A stretch of 64,000 nt of DNA from a virus (taxonomy: Duplodnaviria > Heunggongvirae > Uroviricota > Caudoviricetes), in the IMG/VR virus record IMGVR_UViG_3300045988_152699. One strand, 5' to 3'. The position numbers were made by a program, and so were the translations under genes. Positions within the stretch are counted from its first letter, which is position 1, and every line of letters begins with the position of its first letter. Below are positions 31,462-32,191 of the stretch, piece after piece. The notes under the pieces were generated by a model. It was given only the letters and a program-made list of their open reading frames with translations, was not told where the DNA came from and ran no database searches.

Positions 31462-31619
31462 TTATTAACCTCATTACTAGTTGGGAAATAAGGTTGCGGT
31501 GCCGGGTGCCTCCCGGTGTCCTTTGGCTGGTTATCCACCGTGGACGTGGAAACAAGGAGAAATAATGGACAGATATAACCATTTCCCCGCGTGCGCTTAG
31601 CCGCATTCACCGCAACGGA

Positions 31620-31679
31620 AAGAGCATTCTTGGTGGACCTGTAGATTGGGATATGAACCCGTTACAGGAGAATGCTCTT
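31620..31679. repeat. Hairpin-embedded repeat copy A
   Basis: 11-bp inverted repeat AAGAGCATTCT/AGAATGCTCTT enclosing the 25-nt core GTAGATTGGGATATGAACCCGTTAC. Confidence 0.7.
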
Positions 31680-31874
31680 ACCTGTTACGTGCTCCGTTTC
31701 GTGGAGCTAACGGCGGGTGATCGGGCCGCACCAGACTGGACTTATTTCAGCGTTATGCTCATGCCAGAGAATCAAACTGTGATGGTCGGTGCTGAACTCC
31801 GACACAGGGTTGTAGCAAGCCCCGCAAAGCGCGCACTACTGTAGTTGCGGCACATCAGCCTGTGCATTCACCAC

Positions 31875-31962
31875 AATGTTGAGAACACTGGTTGTCACGC
31901 TGCAACGCAACATTTATTCGTAGATTGGGATATGACCCCGTTACGCCAGTGTTCTCAACGTT
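31875..31962. repeat. Hairpin-embedded repeat copy B
   Basis: 17-bp inverted repeat (one mismatch) enclosing the core GTAGATTGGGATATGACCCCGTTAC, 24/25 identical to copy A. Confidence 0.7.
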
Positions 31963-32110
31963 GTAGTGCCGGTTACGGTTCCGGCCAGGCCTCTTCCTCA
32001 ACGGGGTGTTCTCCATACGGACTACCGTTTATTGGTCGTTCCTGCGGTTTATGTTGTGAAGCCAGATGCTTATCTTCTGGTTGCTTCAAAGAGCTGCACT
32101 TCATCACAAC

Positions 32111-32183
32111 GGTAAGGGTACTTCGTAGGGATTCGAACCCTCTGCCAAGCACGGCGATCTCCGACGTCGCAAAATACCCTTAC
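32111..32183 (-). pseudogene. Degenerate tRNA-like element
   Basis: GGGTTCGAATCCC T-arm-like motif and 10-bp terminal inverted repeat; does not fold as a canonical cloverleaf. Confidence 0.4.
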
Positions 32184-32191
32184 CTGTTGTG

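Follow-up and report, generated by a model that had tools for sequence, protein, structure and literature searches.

Structured RNA hairpins linked to tRNA genes in the trnT-tciA interval of the phage P1 ban operon

What does the interval between the tRNA genes and tciA in the ban operon of phage P1 contain: protein genes, remnants of tRNA genes, or structured RNA? We addressed this question in a stretch of viral DNA of 64,000 nucleotides (IMG/VR record IMGVR_UViG_3300045988_152699; hereafter the window), which represents phage P1, as it matches the P1 reference records at 99.0-99.1% identity over positions 31400-32400. In the P1 reference annotation, the 730-base trnT-tciA interval (31462-32191) lies inside the ban operon on the minus strand of the window. 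A first-pass annotation of this DNA had described two copies of a short core in the loops of inverted repeats and a third tRNA-like element, had placed all of them within a C1-operator-controlled transcription unit, and had proposed processing sites, small structured RNAs, or decayed tRNA genes. The P1 record bears out the placement, since it puts the interval in the ban operon behind the operator and promoter Op72/P1ban. Here we report that the elements belong to a family of long hairpins tied to phage tRNA genes, and that this is very probably a non-coding structured-RNA family rather than a set of tRNA pseudogenes or the annotated upl and plp genes.

Four members of the hairpin family are found in the window, and their fold z-scores were computed against dinucleotide shuffles:

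32550-32631, minus strand: hairpin D, stem of about 19 bp (ATAACAGGCAAGGGCGCUG / CAGCGUCCUUACCUGUUAC), found by a Python stem scan and folding
32105-32191, minus strand: hairpin C, stem of about 21 bp, z = -4.9, inverted repeat I5
31870-31967, minus strand: hairpin B, stem of about 24 bp (CUACAACGUUGAGAACACUGG / CCAGUGUUCUCAACAUUGUGG), z = -5.3
31609-31691, minus strand: hairpin A, stem of about 20 bp (GUAACAGGUAAGAGCAUUCU / AGAAUGCUCUUUCCGUUGCG), z = -3.8

The 25-nt core reported earlier is present in two copies (direct repeat D3, 31641-31665 and 31920-31944; 24/25 identical, 96%), each in the loop of an inverted repeat; the stems, which had been put at 11 and 17 bp, are longer on the minus strand, as listed for A and B. 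The inverted repeat of hairpin A (I2) has 14-nt arms at 31617-31630 and 31669-31682 that are 93% complementary. Its loop contains a small stem-loop, CCUGUA...UACAGG, that bears the core and is followed by single-stranded UCCACCA (31637-31631), so that the minus strand reads TACAGG-TCCACCA at 31646-31631, as the first-pass annotation had seen. Hairpin B, built on 23-nt arms (I1, 31869-31891 and 31946-31968), encloses the other copy of the core and a second small hairpin, and is kept in D6, P7, and one SSU5-like plasmid. Hairpin C begins 2 nt past the CCA end of tRNA-Thr, which is gene-encoded and has its last base at 32193. It carries AGGGTTCGAATCCCT at 32141-32127, and its loop contains the canonical T-arm AGGGUUCGAAUCCCU, continuous with the 3' strand of the long stem. 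This is the third element noticed before: its T-arm motif and the lack of a tRNA cloverleaf call stand, and its helix exceeds the 10 bp then assigned to it (13-nt arms at 32111-32123 and 32172-32184, within the fold of about 21 bp). Hairpin D, a fourth element overlooked at that stage, lies about 200 nt upstream of tRNA-Asn, has a loop with GGUUCGAUUAACC, matches the motif AACAGGYAAGRG, and has orthologues in most P1-like loci. Flanking sequences are also common to A, B, and C (direct repeats D1 and D5), and the junction motifs CRTTGYGRTGAA and AACAGGYAAGRG each occur three times in the window, always on the minus strand at this locus, against 0.12 and 0.02 occurrences in shuffled sequence.

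These hairpins are not the isolated oddities that they had seemed. A, B, C, and D form one family, members of a larger tRNA-linked set that is defined by its stem base and not by the T-arm-like core. For comparison with P1 we used D6, P7, RCS47, SJ46, Ro157c2YLVW, two SSU5-like phage-plasmids, and about 140 IMG/VR loci. The stem base reads CACAAC(A)GGUAAG.../...CUUACCGUUGUG, or CACAACGUUGAG.../...CUCAACGUUGUG, or close variants of these; in DNA letters the conserved base is CACAAC.../...GTTGTG, usually with a 3' flank of the GUGAAU type. Stems comprise 16-24 pairs with 0-2 irregularities, and their upper parts vary among members yet remain complementary, while the loops (17-82 nt) are unrelated between members. 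Scanned for stems, 0.94 Mb of related loci yielded 87 distinct elements, 83 of which lie no more than 1.5 kb from a tRNA gene, and a later scan of more loci gave 38 arm classes, about 14 of them accepted as true members by eye. The family comprises at least 14 arm types. In P1-like and SSU5-like elements, many members begin 1-6 nt past the CCA of a tRNA for Thr, Ser, or Asn.

The pairing of the arms was assessed in an arms-only alignment of 16 arm types, where 97.4% of cells are paired, a figure that is partly fixed by construction because the scan demanded stems. Both partners change in ten of the 19 pairs. These values were matched in none of 500 shuffles, and registers slid against each other are only 35-58% paired. 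The counts of junction motifs, the proximity to tRNA genes, and the strand bias do not depend on the stem-requiring scan. This bias is evident in the folds, which are more stable on the tRNA-sense strand in 17 of 20 representatives (by a mean of 5.4 kcal/mol, Wilcoxon p = 3e-4), and in the stems, where G.U oppositions outnumber A.C oppositions by 116 to 25. Processing sites or small structured RNAs, both offered by the first-pass annotation, still give the best reading of these minus-strand elements.

The family is narrow and apparently undescribed. A scan with the hairpin C-type pattern over 185,579 species-representative genomes found two loci, which is the basis for calling it narrow. Rfam scans of hairpins A-D at lax thresholds identified no family, and no description of the hairpins was found in the literature searched, the RNA-seq papers on P1 giving gene-level statements only. 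Rfam matches to mir-142, mir-5985, snoZ173, mascRNA, and ALIL were rejected, as they merely reflect a long hairpin or a T-arm. A covariance model built from the arms-only alignment (R1) ranks A, B, and C as its top three matches in the window, all of them training members, so that it provides no independent test; D escapes it through a register shift of one base and large loop insertions. One exact match to the hairpin pattern was observed on a contig binned as a 'Candidatus Omnitrophota' metagenome-assembled genome (JAQUWY010000024.1; locus L149), probably a mis-binned enterobacterial phage contig. Two siphovirus-like contigs of about 45 kb carry a family hairpin with a spacer block between tail genes of the opposite strand (L120:2617-2689 and L134:1299-1702, minus strand); the L134 block includes a tRNA-Ile, and the layout of both blocks is that of a moron.

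Between and after the hairpins, the interval is occupied by spacers that are themselves structured:

31969-32104, minus strand: spacer after hairpin C, with a small hairpin (GAAGCAACCAGA...UCUGGCUUC) and an end hairpin GCCGG-AACCGUAA-CCGGC (31985-31968), then CACUACAAC
31777-31868, minus strand: spacer module M1, consisting of GUGAAU, hairpin hp1, a central hairpin, hairpin hp2, then CAUCACAG
31692-31776, minus strand: variable spacer, the least conserved part, in relatives occupied by tRNA-Ser(UGA) and another hairpin or split by a gene of 137 amino acids (aa)
31495-31614, minus strand: STnc100-like leader of tciA (Rfam RF02076, 41.9 bits, E = 4.4e-7)

In module M1, the loops of hp1 (31865-31850, loop GGCUGA) and hp2 (31803-31785, loop AGUUCAGCA) are complementary through GCUGA/UCAGC. 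The loop-loop helix of M1-type spacers spans 5 bp and is 100% paired in ten distinct hp1/hp2 variants, three of the five pairs changing on both sides (GCUGA/UCAGC, ACUGA/UCAGU, GUCGA/UCGAC, with a G.U intermediate); this pairing played no part in the selection of the spacers. On these grounds M1 looks like a kissing-loop RNA and is put forward as a candidate. Between P1 and the SSU5-like locus L007, positions 31797-31868 are identical, and 18 of the 21 differences fall in 31670-31796. In the spacer after C, a segment of 66 nt (32053-32118; the flank of hairpin C and the small hairpin) is 95.5% identical to sequence in many Klebsiella phage-plasmids of about 110 kb; the megablast matches to them are limited to this segment, which points to a very small module common across phage groups.

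The leader, which immediately precedes the tciA start, folds with UGCGGUG/CACCGCA as its closing helix and CCGGG-AGGCA-CCCGG as its terminal hairpin. Its alignment to RF02076 covers model positions 31-147 of 206 and stays below the gathering score of 47, so we regard it as a probable diverged relative of STnc100, sub-threshold and not filed as a member. STnc100 is a prophage-encoded small RNA of Salmonella and E. coli. Its gene lies downstream of stx2 and also of phage tRNA genes (PMC12370729; bioRxiv 10.64898/2026.05.13.724894). The P1 leader shares with it the GGUGAAU start, the closing helix, the terminal hairpin, and a position downstream of phage tRNA genes. True STnc100 loci differ in being stand-alone genes that have their own terminator and no CACAAC-type hairpins in their flanks, and hairpins A-D do not match the STnc100 model.

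Any protein encoded here according to the P1 record would come from the strand opposite to the operon:

31653-31844, plus strand: upl, ORF (open reading frame) of 63 aa in the P1 record, in our judgement no gene
31845-32222, plus strand: plp, ORF of 125 aa with a TTG start in the P1 record, overlapping tRNA-Thr in antisense, judged not to be a gene

The first-pass annotation had recommended checking whether upl and plp occupy this interval in P1, and they do; it had also held that intact P1 genes here would overturn its view, and in a formal sense the 2004 annotation supplies them, although that annotation fails when tested. The reading that the plus strand encodes Upl and Plp, with the inverted repeats incidental, can point to both ORFs being intact in P1 and several relatives, to the match of Upl to two PHROG families of annotated phage ORFs, and to an upl frame that is still open in L007 with several conservative replacements. 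The substitution pattern speaks otherwise: among distinct homologues from the loci compared, changes at codon positions 1/2/3 amount to 5/9/12 for upl and 12/15/18 for plp, with no third-position excess of the kind seen in the neighbouring tciA (1/0/5) and tciB (2/1/10). Against the 92.8%-identical copy in L007, the upl frame shows 4 synonymous and 11 non-synonymous changed codons, and the other five frames do no worse (7 and 8 in frame +2). Frameshifting indels are found across the upl/plp region, including a 1-nt indel site in plp, which also shows two stop gains; SJ46-type relatives lack the ORFs, D6 and P7 have other sequence in their place, a 137-aa gene splits them in L098-type relatives, and RCS47-type relatives have a 173-nt insertion within plp. 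Neither product has a Pfam match at threshold and plp, with its TTG start and antisense overlap, matches no PHROG, while the two PHROG families of Upl were built from the same annotated ORF and so reflect annotation only. A promoter scan gave no sigma-70-like site for the predicted upl promoters. For a plasmid laid out like P1, the NCBI Prokaryotic Genome Annotation Pipeline (PGAP) calls no coding sequence between tciA and trnT, and the interval is likewise free of coding sequences in the annotations of P7 and D6. The earlier observation that no convincing ORF lies between the tRNA-Thr/Asn pair and the TerB-like gene is upheld by the codon-position and synonymous/non-synonymous tests and by PGAP; the interval most likely encodes no protein, and it is highly improbable that Upl and Plp are made as annotated. 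The gene inserted in the L098-type loci lies between 31716 and 31774, mid-upl and within the variable spacer, on the operon (minus) strand; its product is related to crAss001_48 (PF21825, 56 bits; phrog_15270).

The suggestion that A, B, and C are decayed tRNA genes, remains of a longer tRNA array, fared no better. It draws on GGATTCGAACC-like motifs that recur at 78-nt spacing through hairpin C, trnT, and trnA (direct repeat D4), on the extra tRNAs (Ser, Tyr) that relatives have in the same island, and on the perfect T-loop of C. In the tRNA and covariance searches that had been proposed as a check, run here with ARAGORN and Rfam, only the three known tRNAs of the window (Met/Ile2, Thr, Asn) were confirmed; within 31462-32191, ARAGORN found no cloverleaf and RF00005 (gathering score 29 bits) no match at E <= 10, including a 601-nt search with lax filters. 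Compared with 68 co-resident tRNA sequences, the best local scores of the hairpin loops fall within the shuffled range, apart from a borderline value for C (23 against a 95th percentile of 22) whose alignment covers the T-arm only. Moreover, the conserved stem bases and flanks have no tRNA counterpart, the same stems also enclose loops devoid of any tRNA likeness, and the extra tRNAs of relatives adjoin the hairpins and do not take their place. On the ARAGORN, RF00005, and shuffled-loop results, we rejected A-D as tRNA genes or recognisable pseudogenes, and an origin from decayed tRNA genes appears very improbable. In another locus (L117:2236-2365, minus strand; 130-nt Rfam tRNA match, 44 bits), a tRNA-Thr-like gene carries about 57 inserted nt in its anticodon region, has no ARAGORN call, and is followed directly by a family hairpin; it could be an interrupted or intron-bearing phage tRNA.

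What likeness to tRNA there is concerns the T-arm. A loop of the form TTCRANN on a stem of at least 3 bp occurs in 3 of 20 hairpin loops, against 0.1 in shuffles and none on the opposite strand. Set beside a T-arm with a 5-bp stem and a UUCRANY loop, hairpin C has 4 bp plus a G.A opposition, and its T-arm and long stem are continuous, like the acceptor/T minihelix of tRNA. The core of A and B, which the first-pass annotation had likewise compared to a T-arm, bears a weaker resemblance: it reads GGG(U/G)UCAUAUCCC, with 3 bp and U for A at loop position 5. Only C has the canonical T-loop; A and B show TTCATAT and GTCATAT. Hairpin C has a weak, non-significant match to mascRNA (E = 6.6, 14.2 bits), and the YrlA model scores at chance level (19.9 bits). 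The core occurs in B-type hairpins of several lineages, and in the SSU5-like plasmid the A-type stem encloses a different loop, AGAGUUCGACUCU; hairpin A of P1 accordingly seems to combine an A stem with a B core.

The neighbourhood of the interval on the operon strand, in the order of transcription, is as follows:

about 33000-33027: C1 operator Op72 and promoter P1ban (P1 annotation)
32271-32346, minus strand: tRNA-Asn (GUU), trnA (ARAGORN; Rfam tRNA model, 74.5 bits)
32193-32268, minus strand: tRNA-Thr (UGU), trnT (ARAGORN; Rfam tRNA model, 74.9 bits)
31036-31461, minus strand: tciA of the ban operon (P1 annotation)

The full order in the P1 record is Op72/P1ban, a dicF-like region, trnA, trnT, the interval, tciA, tciB, tciC, trnI, and ban. 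At the 3' end of the dicF-like region (32812-32903, minus strand), upstream of trnA and trnT, is a terminator-like hairpin (32839-32820) with a tail containing a run of seven T.

From this arrangement we propose, tentatively but as the likeliest role, that the hairpins act in cis on the ban-operon transcript as processing or insulating sites of the RNase III type. The interval would be an untranslated, highly structured part of the minus-strand transcript with a modular layout, in which hairpins D, C, B, and A, with stems of about 20-25 bp, alternate with tRNAs and structured spacers such as M1 and the STnc100-like tciA leader, and the hairpins would present double-stranded sites on the polycistronic RNA. 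E. coli RNase III requires about 20 bp of double-stranded RNA, two helical turns being the substrate size, and it processes the early transcripts of phage T7 and the DicF precursor. Nearly continuous double-stranded stems of at least about 20 bp are available here in a region that belongs to an annotated operon. Cleavage by RNase III would separate the tRNAs from downstream RNA, leaving a short 3' trailer on tRNA-Thr, would release spacer modules as small RNAs, and would set the 5' end of the tci-ban mRNA. Hairpins left uncut may allow the modules to fold independently and may block 3' exonucleases. More speculatively, the T-arm-like stem-loops (C, and less clearly the core of A and B) may recruit tRNA-recognising enzymes. 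The stem bases that the modules have in common would also offer short homologies for module swaps between phages.

Several points weigh against this proposal. RNase III, or any nuclease, is suggested here by stem length alone. Transcription of the interval from P1ban would need read-through of the terminator-like hairpin ahead of the tRNAs, or an unannotated promoter. Given that the arm pairing is partly built in by the scan, the only pairing evidence free of that bias is the loop-loop helix and the strand bias, and the G.U component of the latter is also expected from a folded single strand of DNA. Within orthologues, 17 of 29 single substitutions keep pairing via G.U and no double changes were seen, so that variation is weakly structure-preserving, and it is too thin to reveal compensatory changes. 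SJ46-type relatives have lost the B/A pair and retain a chimeric hairpin with non-complementary arms, and in a CRISPR interference (CRISPRi) screen plp, upl, and trnT all came out as non-essential (PMC10695390), which together imply that any function is dispensable in the laboratory. It is the dispensability in some relatives and the weak preservation of structure within orthologues that keep our support for the processing mechanism tentative.

The interval is also mosaic. Across 68 distinct versions, breakpoints relative to P1 fall at 31487/8, 31587, 31628/33, 31665|31920, 31716|31774, 31778, 31850/53, 31967/8, and 32100|32122, most of them at hairpin bases, cores, or module ends. SJ46-type relatives have lost 31666-31919 by recombination between the two cores, D6 and P7 have tRNA-Ser(UGA) and another family hairpin in place of 31634-31852, and RCS47-type relatives have an extra hairpin module between 23-nt repeats. 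The tRNA set of the island varies too (L002, L003, L007, L010, L127, and others): Arg(UCU) replaces Asn(GUU) in some relatives, Tyr(GUA) stands between Asn and Thr in others, and Ser(UGA) lies downstream in D6, P7, and SSU5-like elements. The hairpins thus appear to mark the points at which the trnT-tciA region is reshuffled, and they may also serve as recombination junctions.

Could exchange at the DNA level be all there is, the palindromic bases (AAC...GTT) and the inverted repeats at module ends being exchange sites for tRNA, small-RNA, and gene cassettes, possibly folded from single-stranded DNA like integron attC sites, with RNA structure incidental? The coincidence of module breakpoints with hairpin bases and flanks in about 70 distinct relatives agrees with this, as do the presence of the same modules in P1-like elements, SSU5-like elements, and siphovirus-like contigs of about 45 kb, the 23-nt direct repeat of hairpin flank on both sides of the RCS47-type insertion, and the invariant AAC/GTT pairs at the stem base; the region also belongs to the eight that are hypervariable in P1-like phage-plasmids (PMC9603915). 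However, ordinary homologous recombination between any conserved sequences of 20-30 nt would produce the same breakpoints without a special site; a recombinase present in all three phage groups was not identified, although no systematic search was made; the stems beyond AAC/GTT misfit the attC boxes; and the covariation of the loop-loop helix and upper stems argues for selection on folding and not on a protein-binding sequence. We consider DNA junctions rather unlikely as the explanation, and they are compatible with the hairpins being processing sites on RNA. A distinctly unlikely alternative would make the hairpins palindromic repeats, selfish or neutral, of the kind of miniature inverted-repeat transposable elements (MITEs) or REP sequences, which spread in the island and are tolerated in untranslated RNA without a function for the phage. 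Their size (65-130 nt), terminal inverted repeats, variable interiors, dispensability in SJ46-type relatives and in the CRISPRi screen (PMC10695390), and weak purifying selection within orthologues are as expected of such repeats. Yet the 64 kb of P1 hold no other copies, almost none lie away from tRNA genes in the 0.94 Mb, the 185,579 species-representative genomes yield two matches, and the position directly after tRNA 3' ends is fixed; in addition, copies of a MITE have their interiors in common, but the present hairpins share the base and covary in the upper stems, and a G.U strand bias is unexpected for a DNA repeat.

It is also improbable that these RNAs act in trans, as small RNAs or tRNA mimics whose T-arm-bearing members, once released, bind tRNA-recognising proteins, either modification and processing enzymes or host tRNA-targeting defence nucleases for which they would be decoys beside the phage tRNAs. 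The enrichment of T-arm-like stem-loops on the tRNA-sense strand only, the T-arm of C coaxial with its long stem as in tRNA, the variable set of phage tRNAs at the same place (Asn/Arg, Tyr, Thr, Ser, Ile), and the adjoining relative of a prophage small RNA would suit such a role. On the other side, 17 of 20 family members have no T-arm, the core of A and B departs from the T-loop consensus at position 58, equivalents of the D arm and anticodon arm are missing, and the mascRNA and YrlA scores are at chance level.

Several known systems stand closest to the hairpins. Like the RNase III hairpins of T7 early transcripts and of DicF (Qin prophage), they are paralogous hairpins in a phage polycistronic transcript, with stems of about two helical turns, between functional RNA or mRNA units, and a dicF-like region lies in the same P1 operon. 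They differ in lacking any sequence similarity to these systems and in their tie to tRNA 3' ends, large loops, and, in some, T-arm-like structure; a characteristic internal loop marks the T7 sites, where cleavages have been mapped, while cleavage in P1 is predicted. With tRNA-like structures (RF00005, mascRNA, YrlA) they share the T-arm of C stacked on a long helix and, in A, a loop that ends in a hairpin followed by UCCACCA; they are recognised neither by the tRNA model nor by ARAGORN and have no D arm or anticodon arm. In YrlA, a long stem replaces the anticodon stem; in P1, it extends the acceptor-like helix.

Likeness to integron attC sites extends to imperfect palindromes with an AAC...GTT base and a variable centre that bound exchangeable cassettes, and to a plausible strand-specific fold. 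When compared by inspection, AAC...GTT is invariant and many members have a single bulged A after AAC, with the remaining positions off the consensus RYYYAAC/GTTRRRY. The P1 cassettes, unlike those of integrons, are tRNAs and structured RNAs inside a transcribed operon. No IntI-type integrase or attI is annotated in the inspected parts of the P1 record, in which no search was aimed at either, and P1 is not known to have an integron integrase. REP and bacterial interspersed mosaic elements (BIMEs), enterobacterial repetitive intergenic consensus (ERIC) sequences, and MITEs such as the Correia elements of Neisseria, which are RNase III substrates, are likewise imperfect palindromes, about 65-130 nt long, that are transcribed as part of intergenic RNA. 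The P1 family differs from them in being confined to the phage tRNA island instead of dispersed, with interiors that differ from copy to copy. Prophage small RNAs and hairpins for intercistronic processing are known kinds; what distinguishes this family is the tie to tRNA 3' ends, the T-arm loops, and the spacers closed by loop-loop contacts.

A bolder view, to which we give little credence at present, is that the trnA-tciA island, in P1-like and SSU5-like genomes and in some siphoviruses, is an RNA-gene cassette system delimited by a dedicated hairpin family. Its modules would be tRNAs, small-RNA-like modules closed by loop-loop contacts, and T-arm hairpins. The hairpins would direct both the excision of modules from the transcript and their exchange between phages, and some might be mimics of the tRNA elbow that, together with the phage tRNAs, counter host tRNA-targeting defences.

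New genomes continue to inherit the names upl and plp, which also serve as units of functional screening; should they not be genes, these entries ought to become RNA features, and P1 is a reference phage. The hairpin family provides a handle on how phage tRNA islands inside an mRNA operon are transcribed, processed, and kept intact, and on whether T-arm mimicry matters beside phage tRNAs. Because breakpoints lie at the hairpins, the family may also inform how tRNAs and small RNAs of the island are gained and lost. Finally, the covarying loop-loop contact of the spacers is a directly testable candidate for an RNA tertiary interaction.

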